The notes below the pieces were generated by a model that worked only from the letters and a program-made list of their open reading frames with translations, was not told the DNA's origin and ran no database searches. A stretch of 64,000 bases of DNA, from contig CAYNRK010000006.1 in NCBI GenBank assembly GCA_964399675.1, positions 1,886 through 65,885 on the forward strand, read 5' to 3'. A program made the translations under genes and the position numbers. Within the stretch, counting starts at the first letter, position 1. Every line of letters starts with the position of its first letter. The stretch is from an uncultured Gammaproteobacteria bacterium. Its GTDB lineage: Bacteria; Patescibacteriota; Patescibacteriia; UBA9934; GWF2-40-263. Of this stretch, positions 4,393 to 64,000 are shown piece after piece.

Positions 4393-4544
4393 GAGACCGT
4401 TGAAATACTCCAGTGCGAGGTCAAAGTGAGGAATTTTTTTCAGAGATCGTTTCAGGATGACGAGGCGATATGGACATATCATTGAGGAATCATAAAACGA
4501 TCTCTGGGAAAAATAACCGCTTTGGAGCCGTGCTGGAGTATTTC
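4393..4544. mobile_element. Family-C MITE-like element, copy 1 (about 152 bp, 21-bp TIR GAGACCGTTGAAATACTCCAG, nested inner 12-bp inverted repeat)
   Basis: It is near-identical to 15517-15677. The terminal inverted repeats and an internal CAGAGATCGTTT...AAACGATCTCTG palindrome are visible. Confidence 0.65.
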
Positions 4545-4587
4545 AACGGTCTCCATAGCCCTATTTTACCTTTTTGTATCGATTTCG

Positions 4588-5040
4588 TTAAATTTCTGAA
4601 ATATCATCTTCTGAGAGAATTTTTCCAAAATACACACCAGCCTCTCCGGTATTCTCATTGCTTATCAAACGCAATGTTTGACCGTCTTTTGATTGATAGT
4701 CTGTAAACAAATAACGATCATCCTCTTCTGTTTCTGAATCGCCTTCAATTGCAGTTACGTTACCTGCATCCTCGTAATTAAATTCGAATTCCTTTCCCTG
4801 ATACAAAATCACATCAGATGGTTCAACCTCGTCGTGAACGCGATCAAAAAGGATAAGTTCCTCGGTATCAGGCGCAACAGAAAGAAGTCCTTCATTATCA
4901 TTGTAAAGCCAAAATATTTTTGTTCCATCATCAAGCGTTACTTCTGCACGGCCCATGTATTGGAACGGTTGATTTAAAACGCTGACTGATTCGCCAAGCT
5001 CTGTTAAAAGAAGTTGTGAAATATTCATAAATTGAATCAC
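4588..5040 (-). CDS. Hypothetical acidic protein (150 aa)
   Basis: It is a clean ORF with host-like AT-rich composition. I recognise no motif. Confidence 0.4.
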   Translation of the reverse strand: MIQFMNISQLLLTELGESVSVLNQPFQYMGRAEVTLDDGTKIFWLYNDNEGLLSVAPDTEELILFDRVHDEVEPSDVILYQGKEFEFNYEDAGNVTAIEGDSETEEDDRYLFTDYQSKDGQTLRLISNENTGEAGVYFGKILSEDDISEI

Positions 5041-5209
5041 CGGAGAAATTCCTCCTTAGTTTTGTATTCTTCGCCGATTATACTCACAAGTTGAAAATAA
5101 GTAAATCCTGTTTTCCCCAAATTTTTTTATTTTCAAATATGTGTAATTTTTTGACTATTTTTAGCCAAAACCACTTATCCTTCCGAAGCTCCAAAGGAGC
5201 GAAGGAGGG

Positions 5210-5238
5210 TTGACAAAAGTGCATTTTTGTGGTATCAT
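5210..5238 (+). promoter_or_regulatory. Sigma70-type promoter TTGACA-17-TATCAT for cassette 1
   Basis: TTGACA is at 5210-5215, the spacer is exactly 17 nt, and TATCAT is at 5233-5238. Confidence 0.5.
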
Positions 5239-5281
5239 TTTGCGTCATCCTGATTTCGATTGGGATACGCTCTGGGCCTTG

Positions 5282-5362
5282 GTCGAGCTCAACTCGACCT
5301 TGTAGCCCACTTTCCAACCGGGTCTTGTCGAGCTCAGCTCGACTCAGTGCCCCTTTCCAACA
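5282..5362 (+). promoter_or_regulatory. Two tandem copies of a hairpin-forming leader unit (GTCGAGCTCARCTCGAC + GCCCmCTTTCCAAC) in the 5' UTR of cassette 1
   Basis: Units are at 5282-5319 and 5327-5364. Each begins with a near-perfect palindrome and the second is followed by the SD AGGAGG at 5362-5367. Confidence 0.45.
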
Positions 5363-5372
5363 GGAGGAGACC

Positions 5373-6170
5373 ATGGGTCTTCGAACCAACGAGCGACTGG
5401 ATGACCTATGCACCACCGGGAGCTTGCTCTGGGAGCACGTCAAGGATCCGAGAGAGCCCGGACGAGACGGCCTGCTCAAGCGCGCGTTCCGTGTCGCGGA
5501 GTACAGGAACGTCGTGATCGAGCTGCCGGCCGGCGCCGTCGTCGAGCTGGTTGACACCGAGTTCGAGGGTGCCGGCACCTACTTCCACACCGAGGTCTTC
5601 GGAGTCAATCTGCACTTCCGGGACGGGCTCAAGCCCACGGCTGGTGAAGTCGTGATCTGCGACGTCCAGATCTACCTCGAGACCTGGGAGCCGGACTGGA
5701 GCGAGTTGAGCGAGGCCGAGCGGCGCAGGAGGCGTGGCTATCGGAACTACAAGTTCAAGCTCAACGCGACCCCGTGTGCCAAGTCGGACGCCCAGGCAAG
5801 GATGCGCTTGCACATCCGTGACGTGAACGCGGATGGCTACACGCGCATGCACAAGGACATCACAGGGGACGGAGAGCGCTTCGCGCACATGTCCCCGGAC
5901 TGGAAGCCGGACGGCTCCAAGCCCTGGGCCAGGAACCAGGACCTCCAGCTCCTGCAGATCCGGACCAAGGCCGGCAAGGGCGGTGGCAGTGGCAAGGCCG
6001 ACAAACCGGAGACCAAGGCCGGCAAGGGCAAGGGCAACGGCAAGGACAAGCCGCCGCAGAGGACCGAAGCCCAGGTCGTGCGTGAGGTCGACGGCGAGGC
6101 CAGGACGTCCATGCGCGACCTCTTGCGCAACGTCGTCCTTCCCACCACGACCACCCCCTCGGGCTCCTGA
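5373..6170 (+). CDS. Hypothetical protein, strongly GC-rich foreign gene (266 aa, Lys/Gly-rich C-terminal tail)
   Basis: ATG at 5373 lies 5 nt after AGGAGG. GC is about 65% by eye against an AT-rich host, with GC3-rich codons. The antisense ORFs here are high-GC artifacts. Confidence 0.6.
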   Translation: MGLRTNERLDDLCTTGSLLWEHVKDPREPGRDGLLKRAFRVAEYRNVVIELPAGAVVELVDTEFEGAGTYFHTEVFGVNLHFRDGLKPTAGEVVICDVQIYLETWEPDWSELSEAERRRRRGYRNYKFKLNATPCAKSDAQARMRLHIRDVNADGYTRMHKDITGDGERFAHMSPDWKPDGSKPWARNQDLQLLQIRTKAGKGGGSGKADKPETKAGKGKGNGKDKPPQRTEAQVVREVDGEARTSMRDLLRNVVLPTTTTPSGS

Positions 6171-6198
6171 GCCGCAAGGCTCTTCCCGCAAGGGATCT

Positions 6199-6247
6199 GA
6201 CGCCGCCAGCAACTCTCGCTGGCGGCGTCTTAATTTTCAAAAATTTT
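6199..6247 (+). terminator. Intrinsic terminator of cassette 1
   Basis: A perfect 12-bp stem GACGCCGCCAGC-aactctc-GCTGGCGGCGTC is followed by TTAATTTTCAAAAATTTT. Confidence 0.6.
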
Positions 6248-6252
6248 CCATC

Positions 6253-6445
6253 AACCTCCGACGAACCCCCAGGCCACCACCAACAGGTACGTTGTATAAT
6301 TTCGCCAGCACGAGCGAAGCGAGTCTGCCGAAATTATACAACGTGACTGTCCCCCATAATTCTCTACGAAGTCTGCCCGCAGCTCAGCTGCGGGCAGACT
6401 TTTCTAACCCCCCCCTTAATCCCCCCTTGAAAAGGGGGGAACTTC
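6253..6445. repeat. Family-B leader-like repeat, copy 1 (orphaned): CCTCCGACGAAC..., a long perfect hairpin ACGTTGTATAATTTCG/CGAAATTATACAACGT, and a G/C-rich distal hairpin
   Basis: It aligns with 44600-44775 and 48171-48400. On the minus strand it reads extended -10 (TTGTATAAT), hairpin, then GGAGG. Confidence 0.6.
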
Positions 6446-6447
6446 GA

Positions 6448-6975
6448 TTAAATCTTATACAAATACAAATTTGGTGAACCTTTGATCTCGTCAACTTTTA
6501 CAGAATCCCATTCAGGAATTGGCCAAACATAACTTACAACTTTGGTGCCCGGCTTTAACTCCTTTTCCAACTTTGGTTTAATTTTTTTGTAAGTTTCAGG
6601 CATTAAAAAAAGATAGACTGCTGTGTAGTCAGAAAGATCATGAGCAAATGCATTTGATAAAACTATTCTTACTTGACTATGTTTTCCAAAAAAATTCTGA
6701 AACTTTCCAATTAAAACTTGCAAAATGGAAAGCTCCACTCCGGTCGAAGCTGCGCCTGTATTTTTTGAAAGATGCCTGCAAACCCTGCCGTTTCCGCAAC
6801 CTAACTCAACAAACCGATCGTCTTTATTAAGTTCTAACAAATTCTCAATACGTTTTAAATCACGTTTCCACGTTGGCACCCATGGCGCTCCTGAAATCCC
6901 AGCGTATGCTGCTGAGATAAGTAGAATCATGAATATAACAAAAAGAAAAGTCCACATAATAAACAAGAATAACAC
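6448..6975 (-). CDS. Class I SAM-dependent methyltransferase with an N-terminal TM anchor
   Basis: It has the motif I VELGCGNG. It is a paralog of 15696-16238 and both end in LYLYKI. Confidence 0.6.
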   Translation of the reverse strand: MLFLFIMWTFLFVIFMILLISAAYAGISGAPWVPTWKRDLKRIENLLELNKDDRFVELGCGNGRVCRHLSKNTGAASTGVELSILQVLIGKFQNFFGKHSQVRIVLSNAFAHDLSDYTAVYLFLMPETYKKIKPKLEKELKPGTKVVSYVWPIPEWDSVKVDEIKGSPNLYLYKI

Positions 6976-50748: not shown

Positions 50749-52824
50749 TCAAAGCCCCCAGGAAGCTGAGTTTATCCCGTTTCTGTCAGACTTGTTATTG
50801 GCAAAAAAAGTTCCAATCAGTTTAGCGTAACCATTGTAAACACGAATATGTGGGCCGCCCCCTGGTCCGGCAGCTGTAACAATTGAAGCTCCGGGCCATT
50901 CGCTTAGATTTCCAACTGACAAACGAACTCCACCACGAAAATTTTTATCATAGGCAAAAAAAGTCCCCAGCCATGTTCCCTGTCCATCATAAATCTGAAC
51001 CTGTGGACCGCCGCCGTTATCCGTTCCAGTTACAATCTCATCATCACCATCTCCATCCAAATCCCCGCTTGCCACAAAAATCCCTTTATCATAAGTCTTT
51101 GCGTAAGCATAAAATTCACTTATCAGTTCTGCATCAATAGAGTACACGTGCACCAAAGGTTCCATTTCTGAACCATGGCCAATAATAATCTCATCTTTTC
51201 CATTTCCATCAACATCTCCAAGAGCCACTCGCGTACTCAGCTCCCTGTTGTCTTCGGTACTAAATACAAACGATGAAACCAATGCACCTTGCCAGGTCAA
51301 TACTTTTACTCCACCACCTATTGCACCATCCGTGCTCACTGCAATCTCTTCTTTTCCATTTCCATTTACATCCCCGGTTGCAACAAAAAAACCATTATAC
51401 TCTTCCTCTTCATAAGCAAAAAAACTATTTAGTTCTTTTCCAATTAAACTAAAAATCTTGACTTGTGCTTTTGCCTGTGACGGAACAGTAATAATTTCTT
51501 CAACTCCATCCCCAGTCACATCTCCCATTGCCAAACGCACACCTGTTTGCAAATCTTCATACGCATCAAACTCATACAAAAACTCTCCAGAATTAGTGTG
51601 CACACGAATCATTGAACTATCTTGTTCAGACGATACGGCAATAAGATGAGATGATTGAGTAGTGCCAGGACTTACTAATTTTTTTTCGTCCTCATCAGCG
51701 AACGCGTCTGATATCTCCATTGCTTTTGCAATATTTAATCTGCCAGCCCCAAGCTGTCCGGAAAACTGAGGAGTTAAATTAATTGGATCAACAGAGAGCT
51801 GCAAAACAGTCTTTATATCTTTTGGTGTAAGCGAGGGATGATACCCCTTAAGAAGTGCGGCTGCCCCTGAAATAAGCGGTGCTGCCACAGATGTTCCTGA
51901 CCAACCGTTTTGATAAAAACCATCTGCAAAAAGCAACAAAGACTCATCTTGATAAACCGTACTGAATATTTCCTCACCAGGCGCTGAAATATCTGTGCAC
52001 TCATTGCCATAATTTGAAAATGAAGATTTGCTTGTTTGACGAGTGGTCGAGGCAACACCAATGATCCAATCATGCTCTGCCAGCTCACCATAACAAACCG
52101 GATAAATTGGTGTTGAGTTAATATTAGTCCCAGGTTCGTCGGCGTTTCCAACCGCTGCTACAACAACGATTCCGGCATCATATGCATCTTGTAATGCTAA
52201 ACGTAAATGCGGATCTGAATCAAAACCAGTAAAACTCAAGTTGATTACATGTGCACCGTTTTCCATTGCATATTGCACTCCTTTAGCAGCTTGCAGCGAA
52301 TTGCCCACACCTTCATCATCCAAAATTCTCACAGACATAAGCTGCACATTCCAATTTACTCCCGCGATTCCCAAGTTGTTATTACCTTTTGCACCGATCA
52401 AACCAGCGATTATTGTTCCATGAGAAATTGCTTTCTCATCAAAACTTTGACCAAAGTCTGGTGTGGCATGTTCATTGTCCTCAATAAAATTCCAACCATT
52501 CACATCGTCAACATATCCATTTTTATCATTATCAATTCCATCTCCTGCAACCTCGTCTTCATTAATCCAAATATTATCAATAAGGTCTGGGTGATCCATA
52601 TCGATCCCGGTATCAAGAACTGCAACAACAACACCTGAATCCCCTGTTGCTATATCCCAGGCTGCCGGTGCATCAATCTCATTCAGATACCACTGATTTT
52701 CAAAAAGCGAATCGTTTGGAGTTAATGCAGAAACAGGTATTGCCAAAACAAAAAGCAGACAAATAATTATGCCCTTTAAAAAAACTTTTTGTAATTGCAT
52801 ATCTGCGATGTTTTTAAAAATCAT
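50749..52824 (-). CDS. Secreted subtilisin-like serine protease (S8) with C-terminal FG-GAP repeats
   Basis: The catalytic triad blocks are VAVLDTGID, HGTIIAGLI and GTSVAAPLISGAAA. The repeats read GDVTGDGVEEII, GDVNGNGKEEIAV and GDLDGDGDDEIV. Confidence 0.75.
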   Translation of the reverse strand: MIFKNIADMQLQKVFLKGIIICLLFVLAIPVSALTPNDSLFENQWYLNEIDAPAAWDIATGDSGVVVAVLDTGIDMDHPDLIDNIWINEDEVAGDGIDNDKNGYVDDVNGWNFIEDNEHATPDFGQSFDEKAISHGTIIAGLIGAKGNNNLGIAGVNWNVQLMSVRILDDEGVGNSLQAAKGVQYAMENGAHVINLSFTGFDSDPHLRLALQDAYDAGIVVVAAVGNADEPGTNINSTPIYPVCYGELAEHDWIIGVASTTRQTSKSSFSNYGNECTDISAPGEEIFSTVYQDESLLLFADGFYQNGWSGTSVAAPLISGAAALLKGYHPSLTPKDIKTVLQLSVDPINLTPQFSGQLGAGRLNIAKAMEISDAFADEDEKKLVSPGTTQSSHLIAVSSEQDSSMIRVHTNSGEFLYEFDAYEDLQTGVRLAMGDVTGDGVEEIITVPSQAKAQVKIFSLIGKELNSFFAYEEEEYNGFFVATGDVNGNGKEEIAVSTDGAIGGGVKVLTWQGALVSSFVFSTEDNRELSTRVALGDVDGNGKDEIIIGHGSEMEPLVHVYSIDAELISEFYAYAKTYDKGIFVASGDLDGDGDDEIVTGTDNGGGPQVQIYDGQGTWLGTFFAYDKNFRGGVRLSVGNLSEWPGASIVTAAGPGGGPHIRVYNGYAKLIGTFFANNKSDRNGINSASWGL

Positions 52825-54837
52825 CTACGGATTCCAAATTGCAATTGTTCCCCCAAAACGATTTAAAGAATCAAATGCGAAAAAGCCTCCAATGGCATTT
52901 CCTTGCGTGTTAAATACACGAACATGTGGACCTCCTGATTGAAATGGAATTGTAAAAATTTCCTCATGTCCATTTTGATCTATGTCAGCAATACCAACTT
53001 GTACACCTCCTTTAAAATTTGCATCATAAGCAAGAAATGATCGCTGATATTTTCCAAACTGATCAAAAATCATGACCACTGGTTCACTATACTGACCTGC
53101 TGAGACAATAATCTCATTATCTCCATCCATATCAATGTCTCCAATAGAAGTTGCAAATCCGCGCATTGTTTCATTACCTAATTCAAACTCTCGAACATAT
53201 CTACCATTTCCATCAAAAATTCGTACTCGTTGATCCGTGCCCGAGCCAAGGCTCATTACAAGTTCTGATTCAACATCATCGTCAACATTCCCAACTGAAA
53301 CATGTATTGCGTGCGGTGTGCGACCAAAAGGGAAAAAAGAGCCTTTTAGTTGTCCGCGGTTATTAAAAATTCTCACCTGACCATTTCCACCCTGATCAGA
53401 AGTAACAATAATTTCATCTATTCCATCTCCATTAACATCACCTGAGGCTACAAAAATTCCAAGTCTGTCCCCAGGATCCAGGGCAAAAAACTGTCCAAGA
53501 ACTTTTCCATTAAGATCAAAAATCCTCACCTGCGGACCACCGCCCGGACCGGCCCCTGTAATCATTTCCTCCACGCCATTACCATTTATATCTCCCATTG
53601 CCAACCTGACGCCACCATGAAACTCCGGATGATACGCATAGAAAACACTTTTTATTTCGCCTGCTCCATTAACTCGTTTTACAACAGGATCCGAGCCGCG
53701 ACCCTGAGAAACAACAAAAGATCCTGATGGTGTGACCGAGCGTGCTCGTCCATAAGTTGCCCCGCCACCAGTAAACCCAGCAGCAAACTCAATCGCCCTT
53801 TTAACATTTAATCTCCCGGCGCCTAAACTTATGCGTGCATTAACAGAAGTTTCTTTTACCGGATCAACAGCTAGTTTCAAAATGGATCGAACTTGATTTG
53901 GTGTAAGTGATGGATACAAAGAACGAAGTTGTGCAGCTGCAGCAGCAACCATTGGTGCTGCAACCGAAGTTCCTTCCCATGGCGAACCATACGCAGTGGA
54001 AAGCAACAAAACAGCCGGGTCGTGATACACCGCACCAAAAACATTTGTTCCGGGCGCGGAAAGATCAACGCAGTGTGTTCCAAAATTTGAAAACGATGCT
54101 TTTTTATCTTTCTTGTTAGTGGCTGCAACTCCTATTATAACATTCTTTTCAAGATGCTGATCCATGCACGCAGGATAAATTAGGTCAATGTCTGTATTTA
54201 AATTTCCGTTTCCAATGGCCGAGACTATGACCACACCTTGTTCATGTGCCCACTCAATCGTTTGAAGTAAACGTTCGTCAAGTTCTGTTGTTGTAAAACT
54301 CAAATTAATCACGTCCGCTCCGTTGTTAACAGCGTACTCAATAGCACTGCGAACACTCAATGTACTACCCGCCCCATTTTCATCCAGAATACGAAGCGGC
54401 ATGATTCGAACGTTTTGAGCAATCCCAGCAATACCAACATCGTTTGAAGTTTGTGCGGCAATGATTCCTGAAATAAGAGTACCGTGAGAAATAACAGAAT
54501 CTTTCAATGGGTTTTCAATATTTGGTGAAGGATCAGGATCAGAATCAACAAAATCCCAACCAAACGCATCATCTTCAAAACCATTCCGATCATTATCAAT
54601 TCCATCCCCATTAATTTCATCTTCGTTTCTCCAATATCTTCCAATCAAATCTTCGTGATCCAAATCAAACCCAGCATCCAAAACAGCCACAATCGCTTGG
54701 TGCGAACCCAAAGCATGATCTGTGGCTTTTATCTGGTCGAGATACCACTGTTCAGATAAAAACAAATCAGTCGCAGCAATTGCCTGCGCTGGGTTAAGCA
54801 AAAAAGTCAAAATGAGAAAAAAATAAAATACCCTCAT
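52825..54837 (-). CDS. Secreted subtilisin-like serine protease (S8) with C-terminal FG-GAP repeats (paralog)
   Basis: The blocks are VAVLDAGFD, HGTLISGII and GTSVAAPMVAAAAA. There are multiple GD-x-NGDG-x-EII repeats. Confidence 0.75.
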   Translation of the reverse strand: MRVFYFFLILTFLLNPAQAIAATDLFLSEQWYLDQIKATDHALGSHQAIVAVLDAGFDLDHEDLIGRYWRNEDEINGDGIDNDRNGFEDDAFGWDFVDSDPDPSPNIENPLKDSVISHGTLISGIIAAQTSNDVGIAGIAQNVRIMPLRILDENGAGSTLSVRSAIEYAVNNGADVINLSFTTTELDERLLQTIEWAHEQGVVIVSAIGNGNLNTDIDLIYPACMDQHLEKNVIIGVAATNKKDKKASFSNFGTHCVDLSAPGTNVFGAVYHDPAVLLLSTAYGSPWEGTSVAAPMVAAAAAQLRSLYPSLTPNQVRSILKLAVDPVKETSVNARISLGAGRLNVKRAIEFAAGFTGGGATYGRARSVTPSGSFVVSQGRGSDPVVKRVNGAGEIKSVFYAYHPEFHGGVRLAMGDINGNGVEEMITGAGPGGGPQVRIFDLNGKVLGQFFALDPGDRLGIFVASGDVNGDGIDEIIVTSDQGGNGQVRIFNNRGQLKGSFFPFGRTPHAIHVSVGNVDDDVESELVMSLGSGTDQRVRIFDGNGRYVREFELGNETMRGFATSIGDIDMDGDNEIIVSAGQYSEPVVMIFDQFGKYQRSFLAYDANFKGGVQVGIADIDQNGHEEIFTIPFQSGGPHVRVFNTQGNAIGGFFAFDSLNRFGGTIAIWNP

Positions 54838-54871
54838 AACGAAGGCATTTTAACAAAATTGAGCAAAATGT

Positions 54872-56401
54872 CTAAAAATTATCATTTAAACTAAGCACTG
54901 ATGCTTTTGCATCATCAACCACATAATCATCTGCAGATTCAATTGACTCACCAAAACTATAGTTTCCATAAAACGCGTCCGGAATGTCATCGATTTGTTT
55001 GTTCCAATCTGTGCCATATAAATCTATTGCAATTTCTTCTGAAGCAATTGCACGAAGCTGCCCGCCCTTTGAAACCGTATACACAGTTGGCACACTTAAA
55101 AACTTAACCATTTTTGTACCTGGATGATAAGTAACATTCTTTCCAAGTGTAAGTGAAGCCATAAAATCTGTTGAAACTTCTACAACTGAATCAAAATTCT
55201 CATACCAAGTGAAGTAAATTTTTTCATTTGGAAACGCATGACGCTTTCCATCACTTGAGTAAAAGTAAACTGCCCGACACGGATCGGTTTCATCGCTTGC
55301 AACAGAACAATATGTTTTTATAAGTTGCCCTGGAAGTGCTTCTGGAATTTCTGTTTCAGTCTCGGTCTCTATTTCCTCTTCTGGATCAGGAATCACTTCT
55401 ATCACTTCTGGCACATATTTATATACAAGTGATGTTACATCATAATCAGAACCCGCTGCCCAAATCTGGCCGTCTGCATCATGAAACACATCGTAAAAAA
55501 TATAGTTGGTGTCGGAATAAGTATCAACATCCCAAGTCACACCACCATCCAATGAAACAACCAGAATTTTTTCACCGGCTATTGCGATGTTTTGACCAAA
55601 CGACTCAACAGCCAATAAATTTTCATTTCCAATTCCTGAAATTGAAATTGACGACCATGTCAATCCCCGGTCTGAAGTCTTTAGTACAGAACCCTGGCTT
55701 CCAACTGAAAATCCAACTGAATCGTCAAGAAAAGAAATGCTGTTCAAATTCTCATACGTTCCACTTATAATTTCAGCCCAACTCATAGAGTTCGATGTAA
55801 AAAATATTTTTCCATCATCTCCAACAACCCAACCATCTCCGTTGTCTTTTACAAAGACATCATTAAGATCCACAGAACTGCTGGTAGAAGTTAAAGACCA
55901 CGTCTTACTTGTTTCAACATAATAGTAAACTGTTCCGTCTGCTCCAACAAAGAAACCCACTGTGCCATTTACGTCAATTGCGTTTATGTCTTGGGTTGTT
56001 AAAAGCGATATGTTCTGCCATGTCAAACCATTATCAACTGAGCTTAATGCAGAACCATCCTCACCAACGGCAAGAATCTTTCCGTCTGGCAATAATCCAA
56101 AATCAAAATAAAATTTCGTTGATTCACTTACTCCTTCGTTCCAATTCTGACCATCTTCTGAATAAATTGTTTTTCCAGAATTACCGGTTCCTAAATAATT
56201 TGAACCGCTTTGAAAAAACGCTCGCATGCTTTGAATGTCGCCTTCTGATTGAGACACCCAGTCGCCGGCGGCGTGAGCTGAAAGCGAACCGAGAAACAAA
56301 AGAACAAAAGAACAAAAGAAAAATAATATAGGGTAGCCCCAGGCTTTAGCCTGGGTGTGATTGTTTTGCATATTAATAAAAGTATAACACATTTCCTTCA
56401 T
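54872..56401 (-). CDS. Secreted BNR/Asp-box beta-propeller protein with a C-terminal about 150-aa domain shared with the neighbouring giant protein
   Basis: The Asp-boxes are SVDNGLTWQ, SDRGLTWS and SLDGGVTWD. Its C-terminal YFYSSDGKRHAFPNEKIYFTWYENF... matches the N-terminus of 56608-60405. Confidence 0.55.
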   Translation of the reverse strand: MKEMCYTFINMQNNHTQAKAWGYPILFFFCSFVLLFLGSLSAHAAGDWVSQSEGDIQSMRAFFQSGSNYLGTGNSGKTIYSEDGQNWNEGVSESTKFYFDFGLLPDGKILAVGEDGSALSSVDNGLTWQNISLLTTQDINAIDVNGTVGFFVGADGTVYYYVETSKTWSLTSTSSSVDLNDVFVKDNGDGWVVGDDGKIFFTSNSMSWAEIISGTYENLNSISFLDDSVGFSVGSQGSVLKTSDRGLTWSSISISGIGNENLLAVESFGQNIAIAGEKILVVSLDGGVTWDVDTYSDTNYIFYDVFHDADGQIWAAGSDYDVTSLVYKYVPEVIEVIPDPEEEIETETETEIPEALPGQLIKTYCSVASDETDPCRAVYFYSSDGKRHAFPNEKIYFTWYENFDSVVEVSTDFMASLTLGKNVTYHPGTKMVKFLSVPTVYTVSKGGQLRAIASEEIAIDLYGTDWNKQIDDIPDAFYGNYSFGESIESADDYVVDDAKASVLSLNDNF

Positions 56402-56440
56402 TGCTAACCCCCTCTAACTCCCCCTTGAAAAGGGGGAGAA

Positions 56441-56474
56441 TTTTCAAACCAAAATCCGCATCATAGATGCGGAT
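56441..56474 (-). terminator. Intrinsic terminator of the giant surface-protein gene
   Basis: The perfect stem ATCCGCATC-tat-GATGCGGAT is followed by TTTTGGTTTG on the minus strand. Confidence 0.55.
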
Positions 56475-56607
56475 AATGGCTCCTTAAGATCCCAGTTTCG
56501 GTAAGCCTAGGATCGCGGCATCAGCGTTGATCCGAATCGCTTGTGAAACGTGTGGACGGTTAAAGATTTGAGATGTTCCTGGGCGAACCAGTACTAATCA
56601 TGATCGA

Positions 56608-59600
56608 CTATTTAGTCCAGGTTTCAGCACCAAGAGGAAGGTTCTTAACTTTGTAGCTTGAGAACCAGTCACCTCCATCGGTGTCACCTGAGTAGTCTGC
56701 CATATTATCTTGGTGGGTCGAACTTGAGAAGTCAGACCAGATAATATTCTTGAGCACTGCGTCTGCATCAGCTGTTTCTGAACAGTCGTTTGAAGACTCA
56801 GCGAGCAACTGATCAATAGTTGCCACTTCTGTGTCATCGTTCAAACAAACAAGTGTTGTAAGATTTGTGTTACTTGTATCACCTGTCAGATACATTGAGA
56901 AGTAGTCTGTGTTGTTTGAAGATGATGCGTCAGTTACGTTGAATCCTTGTGGTGTTCCACGGACAACATAAGTAACAGTCTCACCAGCACTGATAACCTC
57001 TTCAGTGGCCCATGAGATAAATAGGTCTTCGTCACCCTCAAGCAATCCGCTTGTAGACTCGACCGTATTTGCATCCTCTTCTTGCAACAGAACGCTATCT
57101 GTAATATCAGATCCATTCTTATACAACTTCATGGATTCGACCTCAAGTGTGTCTCCAGCACCACCACCATCAGTCCAACTAACTGTAAAGTTCACTTGCT
57201 TAAGAGCAATAGAACCTTGTGAGTCGGCTGTTACGGTGAACTTGTAAAGATCAGTTGCCTGGCCGTTTACAAGAGTGCTGTTTGTTAGATCAACATGTGA
57301 GAATGTTGGAAGACTCTTCCATACACGAATCTCATTACCATCACGGTCTGTTGCAGCAGCTGATTGCTGTACACCCTGACCGTTGGCGTAGGTTACTGAG
57401 TCAAGTGTAAGTGCTGAGTTTGCAGCAACTGATGCACCACCGGATCCAATGGTTCCAAACAATAGTTTACCGGTTAGAACCTTATAGGAGTTGGTTGGCA
57501 CTTCAATACTTAGACCTGAGATAAGAGCTGCACCGTTTGCAACACTGTCCCCGCTAGTCTGGTTAAAGACTGCTGTTCCAAGCAATTCGTCTCCATCATA
57601 TAGACGTGCCTCTGTTGGCACACCTACAGCACCAGAAGCAACTGAGAGTTGAACTTTGCTGATTGTGAAGGAGTCGTTTGTTGCTGTAAATCGGTACTTA
57701 GCAGCTGTTACTTCTTGTCCACCAGCAGTTGCAAATGCAACTGGTGAAGAACCGTCAAGAGATGTTGCAAAGGTACCAGAACTCATATAAGTGATGGTCT
57801 GACCTTCTTTGTCTGATCCACTTACAGAAGCAGCGGCCTCAGATGTTGTTCCGCTTACATCAAGCTCTGCTTTCAATGTGTCCGCACCGTCAGTTCCGTC
57901 GGCTGCGTCATCTCCTACGTCAGCGTAAGCATCAACGTAGATTGTTTCACCTTTAGCAAGTAGGTAGTTGATTGACCAACTGTTTGCTGTTGTAACAGTC
58001 CCCTTAATTGTTGAGGTTGTCTGATCTCCAGCAGGACCATACTTAATGTAAAGGTTTGTGTAGTCAGCAGTTGCAAGTGCTGCACCTGCGTCATCGTCAG
58101 CATCAAAGTCAACGTTGATTGTGTTGAGGTTGATGTCTTCTGTTGTTCCAGCGTATACAGTCCATGAACCTACCTTGTACTCAACAAGAGGGTCTACAAC
58201 TGTTTGGTTAGCATAAGCTGTGTTCTTAGCAACAGTAAGGGCTCCTTGCTTAATTGTAAGCTGGTTAGCACTTACAGCTGCAGCAGGTCGACTTACGTAA
58301 TCTCCGGTTGTCATTCTATATACGTTGTTTGTAGCTGCGTGTGCAGGAATAGAAGCGGTAATCTTATCCTCTGCATCAGCAGTTGCTGTAATACTATCTG
58401 TTCCGTCGTTGTCGTAAACGTCAGCGCGGACTTCAAGTGTTACTGGTGTTCCTGGGTACACAACAAGGGATGAACCAAATGTGTACTCAGTGTATGCAGT
58501 TGCTTGAGAGTCCTCATTCAGTGTTGATGTGCTTCCGACTTGTGTGCCATCAGCATAAACAGCACCGTTTCGAAGACTTCCAATATCGTCGTCTGCAGCA
58601 TCATTAGTGTCAACAGCAGTGAATGTAAAGCGCAAGCTTTCGATCTTCAAATTCTCACCAAAAGCTTTTACTTCATACTTACCAAGTGTTGCACCGGATG
58701 CGGTGTTTGTTATGTCTCCAGATGGAGATGTTGACATCTTTGTGAACGTCAATGTTCCACTGTTTACTGTTTGTGCACCAGCTGAACGTGCGCTAAATGT
58801 TGTACTGTTAGCCAAAACTAGATCAGCTTGACCATAGTCTTCGTCAACAAATACAGCGTCAGCTGCATCACGCAATGTCATGGTGATTGTACGACCAGAT
58901 CCACCAGTGACGTCTGCTAGTACTTTTACTACATGGTTTCCAGTATTCAATCTAACTGGATCGGCTGATAAATCAAAGGTGACATAGCCATCGCCATTTT
59001 GTTGTGCAACAGCTGAACCTTTCATTACACCAGCAACATACAAACGGAAGTTTCCAACATCAGCTTTAGCAATAGAGCCGATGTTTCGGAATCGAAGTGT
59101 GTGCAATAAAGCTTCGTTTGTTGTCACACTTACTGTGTTCTGCCATACATTCAAGTCAGCTTGTGCATCAACACTTGCCGCTGATGGGGTTGTGCTTGAA
59201 GCAAAAGAAATTGAAGTAAATGTACTTGGAGCAGAAGCAATTGTGTGTGTTGCGCCTGAAATTGGGAATGAACCTGCTGCAGCGTATGAACCGGAGAATC
59301 CGATATCAGATGCTGCTGCGAGTTGTACACCAACTGTTTGGCCAGATGTGCTTGCTGCAATGTTTGATCGAACAGAAACTGTCAAGGTTGATCCTGCTGG
59401 GACTGTAAAGAGTCCTGCTGAATCATTCCAAGTAGCTCTTCCACTTGATAGTGTTGCTGAATCACTTGTTCGGACCCAACCTTCAAACAAATACATGTTA
59501 GAAGTTGTACTATCTGATGAAACACCTGTTCGGTTTACTGCAAAACTTGTTACTACGACGTCAGCACTTGTTGAGTTTGTGAAGTCATAAGAAGCAAGAT

Positions 59601-60405
59601 GTGCAAGACCTTGGCTTTCAAGCAATGTTGAAGCTGATGGTGAGCTTGCTGAGAGACCGACTGAAACGTCTTGTGACTCTGCATAAGTTGTTGTCTCAAC
59701 CATTTGAGCTGCGTCAGTCAAGTTTGACTCCTTAGCTGCAAGGTCGGTTCCTGAAGTAAGTCCTGAAAGGCTAACTCCAGTTCCTGAGAGGACGAATCCG
59801 CTCTGGTATCCGTTTGCTGACATACCAGCGCTTGACACTTTACGTGCTGAACCGTCGGTAATCAGGTAATTGTCGGTTCCATCTGACCAAAGCATTCCTT
59901 CGTATCCGTCAGAAGCGTCAGTCAATGAATCTCCAACCGTGTAGTCTACGAAGAATACATCTGGAACATCATCGATGAACGTGTTCCAACTGTCTCCGGC
60001 AAGGCCGACTGCAGTTGCCTCATCCTCAACCCAATGGATTGATCCGTCTGAGGAAGTTGCATAAACCTTGTCATCACTCGAAATTTTAACCCATCGTGCA
60101 CCAGGTCGGTAAACAATGTTTCCTGCGAGTGTGATGTCTGCGAGCTCTTCGTCTGTAATAGTTACAACGCCACTAAAGTCGCTGTACCATGTGAAGAACG
60201 TCTTTTCGTTTGGAAAAGAATATCGTTGACCATCTGAACCGTAGTAATAAACAGTTGAAAGGGTCTCACCCTTAATCAAGTCGCCGAATGAAGCGGCTGC
60301 AGCTTGTTGTGGGATGAATGCTGTGAGCCCAACAGTCCAAAAGACCATTGCTGCACCAACAGCGAGAACGACTGTATTCTTTGCCAATCGTAATGAATTA
60401 CTCAT
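56608..60405 (-). CDS. Giant secreted Ser/Thr/Ala-rich surface protein (1265 aa; S-layer or adhesin-like with repeated beta-sandwich-like segments)
   Basis: It has a signal peptide/TM (MSNSLRLAKNTVVLAVGAAMVFWTV) and low-complexity T/S/A/G/V-rich repeats. Its N-terminal domain is homologous to the C-terminus of the upstream BNR protein. Confidence 0.6.
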   Translation of the reverse strand: MSNSLRLAKNTVVLAVGAAMVFWTVGLTAFIPQQAAAASFGDLIKGETLSTVYYYGSDGQRYSFPNEKTFFTWYSDFSGVVTITDEELADITLAGNIVYRPGARWVKISSDDKVYATSSDGSIHWVEDEATAVGLAGDSWNTFIDDVPDVFFVDYTVGDSLTDASDGYEGMLWSDGTDNYLITDGSARKVSSAGMSANGYQSGFVLSGTGVSLSGLTSGTDLAAKESNLTDAAQMVETTTYAESQDVSVGLSASSPSASTLLESQGLAHLASYDFTNSTSADVVVTSFAVNRTGVSSDSTTSNMYLFEGWVRTSDSATLSSGRATWNDSAGLFTVPAGSTLTVSVRSNIAASTSGQTVGVQLAAASDIGFSGSYAAAGSFPISGATHTIASAPSTFTSISFASSTTPSAASVDAQADLNVWQNTVSVTTNEALLHTLRFRNIGSIAKADVGNFRLYVAGVMKGSAVAQQNGDGYVTFDLSADPVRLNTGNHVVKVLADVTGGSGRTITMTLRDAADAVFVDEDYGQADLVLANSTTFSARSAGAQTVNSGTLTFTKMSTSPSGDITNTASGATLGKYEVKAFGENLKIESLRFTFTAVDTNDAADDDIGSLRNGAVYADGTQVGSTSTLNEDSQATAYTEYTFGSSLVVYPGTPVTLEVRADVYDNDGTDSITATADAEDKITASIPAHAATNNVYRMTTGDYVSRPAAAVSANQLTIKQGALTVAKNTAYANQTVVDPLVEYKVGSWTVYAGTTEDINLNTINVDFDADDDAGAALATADYTNLYIKYGPAGDQTTSTIKGTVTTANSWSINYLLAKGETIYVDAYADVGDDAADGTDGADTLKAELDVSGTTSEAAASVSGSDKEGQTITYMSSGTFATSLDGSSPVAFATAGGQEVTAAKYRFTATNDSFTISKVQLSVASGAVGVPTEARLYDGDELLGTAVFNQTSGDSVANGAALISGLSIEVPTNSYKVLTGKLLFGTIGSGGASVAANSALTLDSVTYANGQGVQQSAAATDRDGNEIRVWKSLPTFSHVDLTNSTLVNGQATDLYKFTVTADSQGSIALKQVNFTVSWTDGGGAGDTLEVESMKLYKNGSDITDSVLLQEEDANTVESTSGLLEGDEDLFISWATEEVISAGETVTYVVRGTPQGFNVTDASSSNNTDYFSMYLTGDTSNTNLTTLVCLNDDTEVATIDQLLAESSNDCSETADADAVLKNIIWSDFSSSTHQDNMADYSGDTDGGDWFSSYKVKNLPLGAETWTK

Positions 60406-60552
60406 AATTTGTTTTTTCCTTTTTCCCGTATAGGGATTAGTTTCAAATTAGTAGACAGCGACGCAAAACGCCTCGACCTTTTTAGCTAACTACGAATTAA
60501 TAAGGTGACCTCTCCATTACAATTTAATGAAGAAGTGAAGAAAGCATCGTTC

Positions 60553-61413
60553 TTATTGAACGAGACTCATTTCAAGTTCTTTTAACACTTGGAACGCGCG
60601 TCTGTAAGCACTCTCTTTTTGTAATGCTTTTGCAAGCTCAATTTTCTTTGTTTGTTCTGTGCTTAACTTAATCTCATCATAAGCTGCAAGCTGCTTATTA
60701 AATTCCGTTTCAAGCTCCTTTGCTGAATCTTCGTCTTGTGAAACTTCATGTGTTGTAATAATAACTTCTACTGCCTGCTCTTTTGTGTTATCAATAATCT
60801 CCTGAACTTCTGCCACCTCTTCCTCTGTAAGACCGGCTGAAGCCTGAACTGTTGTTTTATAAACCTCGGTTTTGCGACCTACCACTTTTGCAAGTTCAGC
60901 ATTTTCTCCACCCATCTCCTCTTTAATATTAACTACATTTTGTTTAAACTTTGAAACAGCAAGCTGAATGGCTTGAACACGATCTGATCGTGTGGATGCT
61001 GAAAGCGTAACCATTTCTTCAAGACGACGATTAGCAAATTCGATTTGAAGCTCTGTATTTTGTTCTGGTGTAAGAGCGATTGCTAATCTTACACGCTCCA
61101 TACTTAGTTTAACCGGATACAGCCTTTCACCCGGAAGAGCTTGATAGGAAGCGTTGACTGCTGAAAACCAACCAGTGAACAAAAGAACGAACACAGCAAG
61201 ACTTGCTGCCATTGGCTTAAGTGCTGCGTGTGCAAATTGCCAAATATAATATTCGGTATAATCTCTAAATCCGTAAGAAGTCTTTTCGTTGTTTTTTGGA
61301 AAATCAAAATCTCCCGCAAACTTGTTCCACATCTTTGCAGTATCAATACCACCACCAAGTTCTGGTGCATCTTTCATTGACTCTAGTAGTTTTGTAAATT
61401 CATGATCTTTCAT
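60553..61413 (-). CDS. Putative anti-sigma factor (single TM, coiled-coil extracytoplasmic domain)
   Basis: It overlaps the ECF sigma gene by 14 nt (ATGA coupling) and has a TM at about aa 60-80. Confidence 0.45.
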   Translation of the reverse strand: MKDHEFTKLLESMKDAPELGGGIDTAKMWNKFAGDFDFPKNNEKTSYGFRDYTEYYIWQFAHAALKPMAASLAVFVLLFTGWFSAVNASYQALPGERLYPVKLSMERVRLAIALTPEQNTELQIEFANRRLEEMVTLSASTRSDRVQAIQLAVSKFKQNVVNIKEEMGGENAELAKVVGRKTEVYKTTVQASAGLTEEEVAEVQEIIDNTKEQAVEVIITTHEVSQDEDSAKELETEFNKQLAAYDEIKLSTEQTKKIELAKALQKESAYRRAFQVLKELEMSLVQ

Positions 61414-61948
61414 AAAGATCTTTGAGTTTTTTGAATGCTCTGTGCAACATCACTGCTGTTGCATTGTCTGTCTTTCCAATGTGTTGGGCAATATCTTTAA
61501 CGCGATAACCATCTAAATGTCTCATTACAATTACCTCTTGTTCTTCTTCTGGAAGCTTTTTAATGAGTTTGAGCATGAACCCTGCGTCTACCTGATCCAT
61601 TATTCTCTCAGCAGTGACTTTAGACGGAATTGGTAAAGGTTCTCCGGTTTCGTACTCAATTGAAGTTATTTCAACTTTTGAATGTTTTCTGTAGTGCTCA
61701 GCAACAGTGTTTCTGGCGATTGTGTAAAGAAGTCCGGAAAAATGTTTTACCTCTGTGCGAGTGATGTAATTCCATGTCTGAATGAGCACCTCAGAATAAC
61801 AGTCTTCTGCATCGTGTGTTCTACGTAATCTCATCGACAAAAAACGCATGAGTGCGCTGCTATGCTTATCAACCAAGCTGGCAAATGCTGACTTGTCGTT
61901 GAAAGCTCTAATTCTCAGCAATAGAAATTGTTCTCTCTTGTCAGACAC
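61400..61948 (-). CDS. ECF-type RNA polymerase sigma-70 factor
   Basis: It has region 2 (YSEVLIQTWNYI) and region 4 HTH (VKDIAQHIGKTDNATAVMLHRAFKKL). It is 182 aa with a GTG start. Confidence 0.65.
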   Translation of the reverse strand: MSDKREQFLLLRIRAFNDKSAFASLVDKHSSALMRFLSMRLRRTHDAEDCYSEVLIQTWNYITRTEVKHFSGLLYTIARNTVAEHYRKHSKVEITSIEYETGEPLPIPSKVTAERIMDQVDAGFMLKLIKKLPEEEQEVIVMRHLDGYRVKDIAQHIGKTDNATAVMLHRAFKKLKDLYERS

Positions 61949-62148
61949 AGTGTTGAAGTTAATGAAAAAGTATTACAGAACGAAGGAAGAATACGCTAAC
62001 CTAAGATAAAAATCAAGGGCAACACATGACAAACTTGACAAACTACTATTTTTTGGCTACACTAGTGTGGACAAACAACATTATCCACACAGTGTCACCT
62101 GGTGACAGTAACCAGGTTACACCTTTAACACCTCATTACAATACATTT

Positions 62149-62439
62149 ATGAAACCAGTTATTCGACTTTCTGTCTCTGAAGCAGCCAAACTGTTTGGTG
62201 TAAGCCAAAGAACGGTTCGTCGTGCAATCAAAGACCAAGAAATCACGTATGTGGTAGTTCAGGGTCGATACAAAATCAACTTTGAATCACTTCTCCGTTG
62301 GTCACAGCGCACAACAACCATTCGAAACAAAAGAGACAAACATGGGATTGGTCAGTTTGTAAACCAGTGGAACATGAAAAACAAACTATTCTCACCAAAC
62401 CCAAAAAGTATTGATCAAGCCGGGGAGGAAGCAAATTAA
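62149..62439 (+). CDS. Small HTH DNA-binding protein (excisionase/MerR-like helix-turn-helix)
   Basis: The start is ATG at 62149 (MKPVIRLSVSEAAKLFGVSQRTVRRAIKDQEI). The upstream part of the ORF-track ORF contains a TTGACA-17-TACACT promoter-like sequence instead. Confidence 0.5.
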   Translation: MKPVIRLSVSEAAKLFGVSQRTVRRAIKDQEITYVVVQGRYKINFESLLRWSQRTTTIRNKRDKHGIGQFVNQWNMKNKLFSPNPKSIDQAGEEAN

Positions 62440-62444
62440 TTTCT

Positions 62445-64000
62445 ATGAAGCGCTCTCTGATCATTTTTCTGGTCAGCGTCATTCTGTACGGGCTTATTCC
62501 GGGACAAACACTTGCTTTTACAGATGACAAAGAGTTCGTTCGAACAGCGAACTATTTTTTGTTATCTGGAAAACATTTAGAGGGCGAAACGCGCGTTCAA
62601 ACACTTGCTTCATTTGACTTACTTGTAATCCCTGTTGAAGCTCAAATTTATAACAAACCATTTTTTACTCACGCGCGTCAGCTCAATCCAGATATTATCA
62701 TTCTACCTTATATTGCAACTGTGAGTTGGAACGATCTTTATTGGAACGATCCTCTTCACCAAAAACTTTACAAAGGCATAACAAATGACATGTGGCTAAA
62801 AAACGGATCTGGAAAACAAACATCTGTCTGGTCAAATACACGCGCCCTTAATCTAAACACCAAATGGAAAACTCACCTTGCCCACTTTGTAAAAAATAGT
62901 GTTCTGTCCTCTGGGCTTTGGGATGGTGTTTTTTATGATGAGGTTCAAGACTCAATTAGCTGGCTGGGATCGGTTGATGTTAACAAAGATGGTAACAATG
63001 ATTCACGATCTCAAGCAGACTCGCTTTGGGCAAAAAATTATAAGGAACTATTTTCAATTACACGAAGCTTACTTGGTGACAATGAAATTATTGTGATTAA
63101 CGGAAGCTCAAACAAAGAATTTGCTCCGTACTTAAACGGACGCATGTTTGAAACTTTTTCATCTAATAATTCCAAAATGTCTGACTGGAGCGAGCAAGCC
63201 GGCGAGTACCTTGAACTGGAAAAAGACGCTGGATTTGAACCAATCAATATCCTCAACGTAAACACAGGAAATACTGGAAACAAAAATGATTATCAAAAAG
63301 TTCGATTCGGAATCACCACCACTCTTTTGGGAGATGGTTATTTCTCTTTTGATCACGGAACACAAAGCCATGCTCAAACCTGGACCTATGACGAGTTCAC
63401 GGCCCATCTAGGGGCCCCAAAAACCTCTCTACACAACACAGTAAATCCTCAAAATGGAACTCTTGCAGCTTCCCTTCTCTATCGCGACTTTGAGCAAGGC
63501 AAGGTTTTGGTTAACGCCACAAACTCAACACAACAAGTTCTTCTTGACGGTGAGTATGAAAAAATCCACGGCACACAGGATCCGTTTGTAAATGATGGTT
63601 CGATTATCTCAGAAGTTACACTTAGCCCAAAGGATGGGATTATTCTTTTGCGTCCAATTGAAAAAATCACCAACTCTACATTTTTGAATGGTTCATTTGC
63701 ACGAATTTTCTCAAAGGACGGGGATACAAAGCGAACCGGTTTCTTTGCGTATGAAAGCTCTCAGCATGGTGGAACACAAGTAAACATGTTTGATCTTGAT
63801 CTTGATGGTAAACTAGAAATGGTAGTTGCTGGAAAAACATGGGTTGAGATTTATGATGACAACGGCGATTTACACGCACGCTTTGCTCCATATACCGAAA
63901 CCTACGACCAAGGTATAAATATATCTGTTGGTGATATTGAAAGTGATGGGTCTATTGAGATTGTAACTGGAACAGAAAATGGTGGCGGCCCGCAAGTTCG
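62445..64000 (+). CDS. Secreted protein with a putative glycoside-hydrolase-like (TIM-barrel-type) domain and C-terminal FG-GAP repeats (partial at the window end)
   Basis: ATG at 62445 follows GGGGAGGAA. There is a signal peptide (MKRSLIIFLVSVILYG) and the terminal repeats read DLDLDGKLEMVVAG and GDIESDGSIEIVTGTENGGGPQV. It is not in the ORF track because it has no stop inside the window. Confidence 0.5.
   Translation, partial: MKRSLIIFLVSVILYGLIPGQTLAFTDDKEFVRTANYFLLSGKHLEGETRVQTLASFDLLVIPVEAQIYNKPFFTHARQLNPDIIILPYIATVSWNDLYWNDPLHQKLYKGITNDMWLKNGSGKQTSVWSNTRALNLNTKWKTHLAHFVKNSVLSSGLWDGVFYDEVQDSISWLGSVDVNKDGNNDSRSQADSLWAKNYKELFSITRSLLGDNEIIVINGSSNKEFAPYLNGRMFETFSSNNSKMSDWSEQAGEYLELEKDAGFEPINILNVNTGNTGNKNDYQKVRFGITTTLLGDGYFSFDHGTQSHAQTWTYDEFTAHLGAPKTSLHNTVNPQNGTLAASLLYRDFEQGKVLVNATNSTQQVLLDGEYEKIHGTQDPFVNDGSIISEVTLSPKDGIILLRPIEKITNSTFLNGSFARIFSKDGDTKRTGFFAYESSQHGGTQVNMFDLDLDGKLEMVVAGKTWVEIYDDNGDLHARFAPYTETYDQGINISVGDIESDGSIEIVTGTENGGGPQV

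Follow-up and report, generated by a model that had tools for sequence, protein, structure and literature searches.

We analysed a 64,000-nucleotide stretch of a contig from an ultra-small, Uhrbacteria-like member of the Patescibacteria (GenBank CAYNRK010000006.1; hereafter the window) in which the gene for a giant secreted protein of 1265 amino acids (aa) lies next to that for a secreted BNR/Ycf48-like beta-propeller protein, with one sequence module common to both products. Judging from sequence and structural models, we consider it probable (roughly 0.6) that the giant protein is a surface-layer (S-layer)-type protein and that the module is a wall anchor common to it and to accessory exoproteins, rather than half of a docking pair as an earlier note on this DNA had proposed. 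The module is best described as an uncurated, phylum-restricted family of anchor domains within a known organisational scheme. Positions are given in window coordinates, and a Joint Genome Institute (JGI) metagenome contig identical to the window (L001) was used for genes past the window edge. The features that carry the argument are as follows.

56608-60405, minus strand: giant secreted protein, 1265 aa, 132 kDa, isoelectric point (pI) 4.1, 2 Cys, probable S-layer-type surface protein (open reading frame, composition, homologues)
59896-60288, minus strand: shared module, N-terminal copy, giant residues ~40-170, units R1 and R2, right behind the signal peptide (43% identity to the BNR C-terminus)
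59710-59892, minus strand: third, degenerate repeat unit, giant residues ~172-232 (hhalign P 4.3e-5 against R2, P 2.2e-4 against R1)
56611-59667, minus strand: conserved body of the giant protein, residues 247-1265, about eight beta-sandwich domains (AlphaFold2 predicted local distance difference test score, pLDDT, 89.5; alignment)
54872-56401, minus strand: BNR/Ycf48-like beta-propeller protein, secreted, 509 aa, with an acidic linker and a C-terminal shared module (PSII_BNR, E 2.5e-12)
54875-55321, minus strand: shared module, C-terminal copy, BNR residues 361-509, with a conserved Cys pair just before it (BLASTP, tblastn, alignment)

The shared module and the exchangeable N-terminus of the giant protein

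Residues 378-492 of the BNR protein aligned with residues 52-166 of the giant protein by BLASTP without gaps and at 43% identity (E 8e-30). This is far beyond chance and bears out the homology between the two termini that the earlier note had seen. The two are the only copies in the window, as a tblastn search with both against all six frames found no third (next best E 0.2). The domain had been described as about 150 aa long; its conserved core is shorter, at ~115-135 aa, and consists of an internally duplicated ~50-aa unit, with R1 and R2 matching in register (hhalign P 6.5e-4). In the giant protein, R1, R2 and the third unit together make up an exchangeable N-terminal module at residues ~38-246.

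Homologues of the giant protein align with it from residue ~247 to the end, and the ~246 residues before that point are exchangeable. With a profile made from relatives, the shared module was found at the N-terminal position in 101 of the 120 best homologues. Other homologues carry three SLH repeats (P0129, E 1e-24; P0139, E 7e-31; P0134, 26.2 bits, above the Pfam cut-off), an N-terminal PG_binding_1 domain (P0141, P0146 and, at 27.6 bits, P0144) or three repeats of ~50 aa each, which form a module with a distant relationship to the shared one (hhalign E 1.2e-4). SLH and PG_binding_1 are established wall-binding domains. Because the shared module swaps in this slot with both of them and with the related three-repeat module, we read it as a probable wall anchor and the giant protein as probably of the S-layer type. 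The evidence from this exchange thus favours a brief aside in the earlier note, which had asked about S-layer anchoring.

None of 22 module sequences had a credible curated match in Pfam at E <= 10, a search that included SLH, carbohydrate-binding modules (CBMs), LysM, SH3b, PG_binding and CW_binding, and neither the giant nor the BNR protein gave an SLH (PF00395) match at E <= 0.01. The best matches from PDB sequence-profile and family searches were an antibody heavy chain (E 0.38) and otospiralin. The earlier note had named a match to a known common domain, for example a CBM, as the result that would speak against a docking pair, and Pfam, NCBIfam and the PDB sequence-profile search gave no credible match of this kind. 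Its description of the domain as novel is right in that no curated family is matched, but the module is very common in Patescibacteria. It is acidic (pI 4.0-4.4) and has invariant aromatic and polar residues (Y, W, N, R and D), among them Y15, R23, N28, W35, W102 and Y117.

The AlphaFold2 model of the BNR copy (pLDDT 89.7) consists of two similar beta-beta-alpha-beta-alpha halves. Foldseek found no significant neighbour among solved structures; its best matches in the PDB, all weak, were the periplasmic repeats of EccB (E ~0.1, range 0.08-1; template modelling score, TM, 0.3). EccB belongs to the type VII secretion system (T7SS, or ESX) and resembles the module in having repeated small alpha/beta units in the wall compartment of a Gram-positive-type envelope; it differs in that the structural match is weak, sequence similarity is lacking and the locus offers no T7SS context. 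A peptidoglycan-binding role has been proposed for the EccB repeats; our literature search found no paper for the statement that EccB1 or PlyPSA binds peptidoglycan. A structure search of BFVD linked the module to small actinophage proteins (TM 0.5-0.7, E 1e-4), with faint endolysin matches.

To place the module more widely, a profile built from 22 copies was searched against 1.84 billion cluster representatives. The module is present in 4,778 of these (2,227 at E < 1e-30), and all matches with a taxon-bearing name are Patescibacteria. The 148 best representatives that the search newly returned contain 156 domain matches; 134 of these stand at the extreme C-terminus, about 11 follow a signal peptide at the N-terminus, and a few are internal or doubled. 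Partner domains, recorded in 76 of these proteins, are PSII_BNR (41), Big_13 (33), Big_7, sortilin/BNR, PKD, Big_1/invasin, Peptidase_S8, GH5 cellulase, DUF3048 and others. A second, length-biased search additionally returned proteins of ~260 aa made of a signal peptide, the module and a cupredoxin, proteins that join SH3_3 to the module, and a stand-alone module of 177 aa. The cupredoxin proteins (P0302, P0311, P0325 and others) are small, secreted and annotated as plastocyanin, and their fusion to the module implies that bacteria usually regarded as fermentative tether a copper electron carrier to their wall.

Thousands of unrelated exoproteins, a cupredoxin among them, carry the module at one end or the other. 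We therefore favour a role in targeting to, or retention on, the producer's own wall. In a docking arrangement of the kind that the earlier note suggested, the C-terminal copy of the BNR protein would bind the N-terminal copy of the giant protein, or both would bind a common protein scaffold, and the accessory proteins would hang on the S-layer. The two genes are indeed adjacent, and in most Uhrbacteria loci with enough flank they remain so; the copies occupy opposite ends of their proteins, and some proteins have two copies of the module (P0150, P0205). We nevertheless consider docking very unlikely. The copy on the giant protein can be replaced by SLH or PG_binding_1, which bind wall polymers and not proteins; outside Uhrbacteria, giants that bear the module have no second copy within 8 kb; and the module is found with varied partners at either terminus, and alone. 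Given partners this diverse and the interchangeability with SLH and PG_binding_1, a common wall ligand explains the data better than mutual docking.

The same evidence bears on the view that the module is a CBM for foreign glycans, of a host or the environment, that serves epibiont attachment or enzyme targeting, with the giant protein as an adhesin. The invariant residues resemble sugar-binding sites, the partners include a cellulase, S8 proteases and BNR propellers, and Patescibacteria are often episymbionts according to the literature. This view is distinctly improbable, if slightly less so than docking, as Pfam gives no CBM match, the place that the module shares with SLH and PG_binding_1 speaks for the producer's own wall, and an identity of 35-60% for the giant protein across many candidate phyla is unexpected for a host-specific adhesin. 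The cupredoxin fusions and stand-alone forms are also hard to reconcile with substrate targeting. Own-wall retention fits better than substrate binding because a cupredoxin would gain nothing from a substrate-binding CBM and, in a cell without an outer membrane, needs to be retained.

The giant protein as a candidate S-layer protein

The giant protein is rich in T, A, S, G, V and D (T, A and S make up 35%) and has a pI of 4.09 and only 2 Cys in 1265 aa; the JGI gene call starts six codons later and gives 1259 aa. Its N-terminal hydrophobic signal ends AAA/ASFG, and it presents the secreted, large, acidic and Cys-poor character expected of an S-layer protein. No Pfam or NCBIfam family matched it, and a BLASTP self-comparison detected no internal sequence repeats. 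Full-length homologues at 45-59% identity occur in Uhrbacteria and other Patescibacteria, and a scan with one genome per species found relatives in 80 species-level loci. The lineages include Uhrbacteria, Magasanikbacteria, Veblenbacteria, Nomurabacteria, Staskawiczbacteria, Doudnabacteria, Yanofskybacteria, Lloydbacteria and Portnoybacteria, among others.

AlphaFold2 predicts the conserved body (mean pLDDT 89.5) as an all-beta "beads on a string" chain, a generic architecture that is not diagnostic of S-layers. Foldseek searches with the body returned generic multi-Ig arrays, pilins and adhesins such as antigen I/II. The chain ends in a strongly conserved, Trp/Asp-rich motif, FIWSD...SH...SSGDW..GY.V.NL.L..ETW.K (residues ~1215-1265; 56611-56760, minus strand), in which W1223, D1225, D1246 and W1247 are invariant across the family (alignment A4). 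The C-terminus has no sortase signal and no membrane helix, and the motif may act as an assembly or sorting element. One further feature lies just beyond the gene.

56454-56474, minus strand: intrinsic-terminator-like hairpin, a 9-bp stem then TTTT, 3' of the giant gene (terminator scan and sequence)

Because this terminator follows the giant gene, the gene is probably its own transcription unit, separate from a second unit made up of the BNR gene and two S8 protease genes.

Several properties agree with an S-layer protein: the signal peptide, the pI of 4.1, the scarcity of Cys, the T/A/S-rich composition, the all-beta beads and a promoter region and terminator of its own. Glycan-synthesis genes on both flanks, as in Bacillota S-layer loci, also speak for this reading. 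N-terminal SLH anchors in front of bead-like lattice domains are typical of Gram-positive S-layer proteins (PMC12175726). In addition, a SymProFold survey in preprint form has predicted that Patescibacteria proteins of 1131-1274 aa form hexagonal S-layer lattices. It describes conserved lattice domains paired with diverse anchors, some of them common to non-S-layer surface proteins (bioRxiv 10.1101/2024.05.28.596244). The giant protein would share with these predicted proteins the phylum, the size class and the modular pairing of lattice and anchor. Others have probably already noted its family among candidate S-layer proteins. The accessible text of the survey describes neither this anchor module nor its distribution nor the linkage to a sigma factor set out below, and no description of these three was found in the literature that we searched.

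Several points weigh against this reading. The module is acidic, whereas SLH regions that bind anionic polymers are usually basic, and its structural similarity to known wall-binding folds is only weak. Foldseek retrieved no specific solved S-layer protein for the giant body, and the giant family did not overlap with the survey's Patescibacteria S-layer accessions in the ten clusters checked.

The last two points also feed a further alternative, in which the module is a wall anchor and the giant protein a non-lattice surface fibre or large adhesin, any true S-layer protein being encoded elsewhere. The structure search yielding only generic Ig arrays, pilins and adhesins, together with the lack of overlap in the ten-cluster look-up, lends itself to this possibility. 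We think it unlikely, albeit less so than docking or foreign-glycan binding, as size, composition, low Cys content, SLH in homologues, a monocistronic gene and near-universal conservation all fit S-layer proteins, and as lattices are predicted for Patescibacteria proteins of equal size class in the same preprint.

Under the S-layer reading, the locus would follow the logic of SLH in Bacillus and Paenibacillus. In Bacillota, as with Sap, EA1 and the BSL proteins of Bacillus anthracis, the S-layer protein likewise has a wall-targeting module at its N-terminus, and many accessory exoproteins have this module too. Repeat units of ~50 aa again precede a beads-on-a-string beta array, and some giant homologues hold genuine SLH at this place. 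The window module differs in having no PF00395 match, a predicted mixed beta/alpha fold, two or three units and an acidic character, whereas SLH is a helical trimer of strictly three units. A second parallel is Clostridioides difficile, where SlpA and 28 Cwp proteins (proteases and adhesins among them) use a common CWB2 anchor for binding to a wall polymer whose genes lie near the S-layer locus. The proposed scheme is alike in placing a single anchor on the S-layer protein and on diverse surface proteins. It is unlike in that no sequence relation to CWB2, a three-fold toprim-like alpha/beta unit, was detected and in that the window module stands at either terminus in one to three units. PG_binding_1 (PF01471) takes the same N-terminal slot in giant homologues of the Staskawiczbacteria type, which implies an equivalent role, with an unrelated helical fold and no sequence match to the window module.

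We infer from these comparisons how the surface may be organised. The module would be a non-covalent cell-wall-targeting domain that binds a component of the producer's own wall. The candidate ligand would be peptidoglycan or else a secondary glycopolymer, produced by glycosyltransferases that are encoded on the flanks of the locus. The giant protein would consist of a signal peptide, an exchangeable module of three ~50-aa alpha/beta units and the conserved beta-sandwich chain, and would form a lattice held to the wall by its N-terminus. Accessory exoproteins (propellers, proteases, Ig-array proteins and cupredoxins) would be held by their C-termini, and the BNR protein and the giant protein would bind a common ligand and not each other. 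The locus would then comprise an S-layer-type protein, an operon of wall-associated accessory proteins and glycan-synthesis genes on both flanks.

A sigma factor gene linked to the giant gene

Upstream of the giant gene lie genes for a sigma factor of the extracytoplasmic function (ECF) type and a membrane protein, followed by a divergent regulator gene.

61400-61948, minus strand: ECF-type sigma factor, 182 aa (Sigma70_r2 and r4_2 in Pfam, TIGR02937 in NCBIfam)
60553-61413, minus strand: DUF5667 single-pass membrane protein, 286 aa, putative anti-sigma (DUF5667, E 4.3e-11)
60494-60522, minus strand: sigma70-like promoter candidate of the giant gene, TTGTAA-N17-TAATTC (or ATTAAT, 15 nt), found by reading and not called by a consensus scanner
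60459-60480, minus strand: leader element, AAGGTCGA motif (60473-60480) whose CGA is the base of a short hairpin (60459-60475) (7-mer count, folding)
62058-62067, no strand assigned: conserved palindrome ACACTAGTGT, candidate operator, between the divergent HTH_17 and sigma genes (Uhrbacteria comparison)
62151-62439, plus strand: small HTH_17 regulator, likely start ATG 62151 (HTH_17, E 3.3e-10)

The sigma factor scored 79.1 bits with TIGR02937 (cut-off 42.9) and has regions 2 and 4 only, as in ECF (group 4) sigma factors, and its gene overlaps that of the membrane protein by 14 nt. Of 62 species-level loci with at least 3 kb of upstream sequence, 48 have a sigma homologue on the strand of the giant gene and no more than 3 kb upstream of it, including lineages whose giants carry PG_binding_1. 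In all ten more distant sigma-linked loci from which the intervening reading frames were extracted, the protein encoded between the two begins with a short segment, followed by a single hydrophobic helix and a helical remainder. No recognised anti-sigma domain or zinc motif was detected in the DUF5667 membrane protein of the window. The conserved gene order speaks for a functional link; the sigma factor and membrane protein are tied to the giant gene in evolution and probably tune its expression.

The 7-mer AGGTCGA occurs in 35 of 69 upstream regions of giant genes, with 1.2 expected, and almost only in sigma-linked loci. About half of the related loci (equivalents in L006-L064) have a AAAGGTCGA motif and a hairpin at a fixed offset upstream of the giant gene. 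Between lineages the stem sequence is fully different and covaries while its start keeps the same offset, the loop is often of the GNRA type, and the minimum free energy is below that of controls (p 1e-4). In Uhrbacteria the leader often contains, further downstream, another unit of this kind, made of AAAGGTTCA and a hairpin. Two other matches of the AAGGTCGA motif in the window lie in coding or unrelated sequence. The element may be a stem-loop near the 5' end of a highly expressed mRNA, with a stabilising or regulatory role; it could also be a protein-binding site or a promoter element.

The earlier note had suggested that the sigma and anti-sigma pair may govern the locus. The synteny upholds a functional tie to the giant gene; control of the whole locus does not follow, as no ECF promoter of fixed spacing was found and the BNR and S8 genes form a separate unit. 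An inspection of the region upstream of 60405, which the note had proposed, gave no -35/-10 pair at fixed spacing. We tried AAGGTCGA as a -10 element with an AATTC-like -35, where the spacing varies from 13 to 18 nt, and as a -35 element, for which there is no consistent -10, and rejected both as unproven. Uhrbacteria conserve TTGATG-N15-17-ATTAAT upstream of the giant gene.

A further explanation would have the ECF sigma factor itself transcribe the giant gene and all of the locus, using an ECF-type promoter and controlled by the membrane protein as its anti-sigma factor. We consider this doubtful, although we rate it above the rival explanations of the module and the giant protein. The common order and strand of the three genes in 48 of 62 loci across distant lineages would fit such control, as would the GTC in AAGGTCGA, which resembles many ECF -10 elements, and the near restriction of the motif to sigma-linked loci. 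The AATTC-like boxes have no fixed distance to the motif, however, and its CGA pairs into the covariation-conserved hairpin, suggesting a transcribed element. Better-spaced sigma70-like hexamers lie upstream of the motif, the sigma gene's own upstream region has a sigma70-like TTGATT-N17-TATnnT, and the motif is absent upstream of the BNR, S8 and GHL15 genes in the window. The association of motif and sigma gene may also simply reflect common descent.

The intergenic region 61949-62150 contains ACACTAGTGT and then a AAAAGTCAA motif with the TTGATT-N17-TATnnT promoter-like pair. The AAAAGTCAA motif upstream of the sigma gene is related to AAGGTCGA upstream of the giant gene, and here too sigma70-like hexamers fit better than an ECF pair. 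The ACACTAGTGT palindrome is kept, with C/T variation at one position, in most of 23 Uhrbacteria regions upstream of the sigma gene, and is plausible as an operator for the divergent HTH_17 protein. A 137-aa HTH reading frame from 62026 is probably over-extended, as gene calls in the identical contig and in related ones give 92-96 aa. Separately, a small hairpin at 60547-60563 (minus strand) spans the stop codon of the membrane-protein gene, and related loci have stem-loops of different sequence at the equivalent place. The hairpin may serve as a partial terminator that sets the sigma operon apart from the giant gene.

Accessory genes, locus variants and significance

Three further genes for secreted proteins complete this end of the window.

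50749-52824, minus strand: S8/FG-GAP protease paralogue 2, secreted subtilase (Peptidase_S8, E 1.4e-50; FG-GAP, E 5.9e-17; Pfam)
52825-54837, minus strand: S8/FG-GAP protease paralogue 1, secreted subtilase (Peptidase_S8, E 3.8e-48; FG-GAP, E 1.4e-14; Pfam)
62445-64000 and past the window end, plus strand: GHL15-like putative glycoside hydrolase, secreted, with C-terminal FG-GAP repeats (GHL15, E 4.3e-26; FG-GAP_3, E 1.5e-5)

The reading frames and the minus strand are as the earlier note had placed them, and Pfam agrees with it on the S8 and FG-GAP domains, the BNR protein, the sigma factor and the glycoside hydrolase-like FG-GAP protein. Both proteases are 670-690 aa long; paralogue 1 starts 34 nt past the BNR stop codon, and the start codon of paralogue 2 abuts the stop codon of paralogue 1. 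The two proteases are paralogous, as had been claimed (38.6% identity over 681 aa, E 1e-150), and both translations have the catalytic Asp, His and Ser motifs of S8 peptidases, namely D-(T/A)G (LDAG), SHGT and GTSVAAP. The GHL15 protein is 674 aa at full length in contig L001, and its FG-GAP portion resembles those of both proteases. A perfect hairpin, CTCCCCC-TTTTCAA-GGGGGAG, lies directly upstream of the BNR start at 56402-56450 (minus strand) and overlaps the likely ribosome-binding site.

Where the sequence extends far enough, most Uhrbacteria loci have a BNR orthologue of the same architecture downstream of the giant gene. In several Uhrbacteria, the second subtilase on this side is ~540 aa long and has the shared module at its end where others have FG-GAP (L003 17749-19368; L012, L018, L020 and L033), which shows that C-terminal modules are exchanged between orthologous proteases. 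The idea of FG-GAP as a common surface-attachment scheme stays speculative, as these proteases speak only for exchangeability.

Glycan-synthesis genes lie on both sides. The 43-50 kb region of the window encodes GT4 and GT2 glycosyltransferases, a DUF2304 protein, an NAD-dependent epimerase and a NUDIX protein (Pfam), and identical and related contigs have Wzy_C and more GT4 genes past the window. In the identical contig, the Wzy_C gene lies past the GHL15 side. In related Uhrbacteria (L002 11997-14117 and L003 11999-14179), the gene for a membrane protein that combines Wzy_C (O-antigen-ligase-like) with TPR is inserted between the giant and BNR genes. The Wzy_C genes suggest that surface glycan or glycoprotein assembly is linked to the locus.

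No RNA genes or tRNAs were found within the window. Far from the locus, positions 4400-6600 have a G+C content of 0.48 (against ~0.39) and overlapping reading frames on both strands, with a 48-nt tandem repeat at 5963-6058 that encodes a Lys/Gly-rich peptide and repeated GTCGAGCTCA(A/G)CTCGAC palindromes at 5282-5343. As an RNA gene this 4.4-6.6 kb stretch was rejected, a relaxed Rfam search giving only a sub-threshold Thr_leader match.

The locus holds no categorically new mechanism, and if the module were merely an ordinary glycan binder, it would be just a cluster of secreted proteins. Patescibacteria, or the candidate phyla radiation, are a very large and almost entirely uncultured branch of bacteria, and the structure of their envelope remains unclear (PMC5220378). 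If the module is a general wall anchor, one profile would be enough to pick out the wall-associated surface proteins of any genome in this group, the giant family could be recognised as the S-layer component, and the module in recombinant form could be used as an affinity probe for the cells. The conserved order of sigma, sensor and S-layer genes would likewise give a rare handle on gene regulation in these organisms. As a speculation that we hold unlikely to prove right in full, the sigma factor, a single-pass sensor of wall or S-layer state, and the S-layer gene would make up a conserved three-gene circuit in much of the Patescibacteria, with the AAAGGUCGA-hairpin leader taking part in its control, and the module would bind a wall polymer found only in these bacteria. 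If it does recognise such a polymer, the module would be the principle by which the surface proteome is organised and would also offer a means to label or capture uncultured cells.

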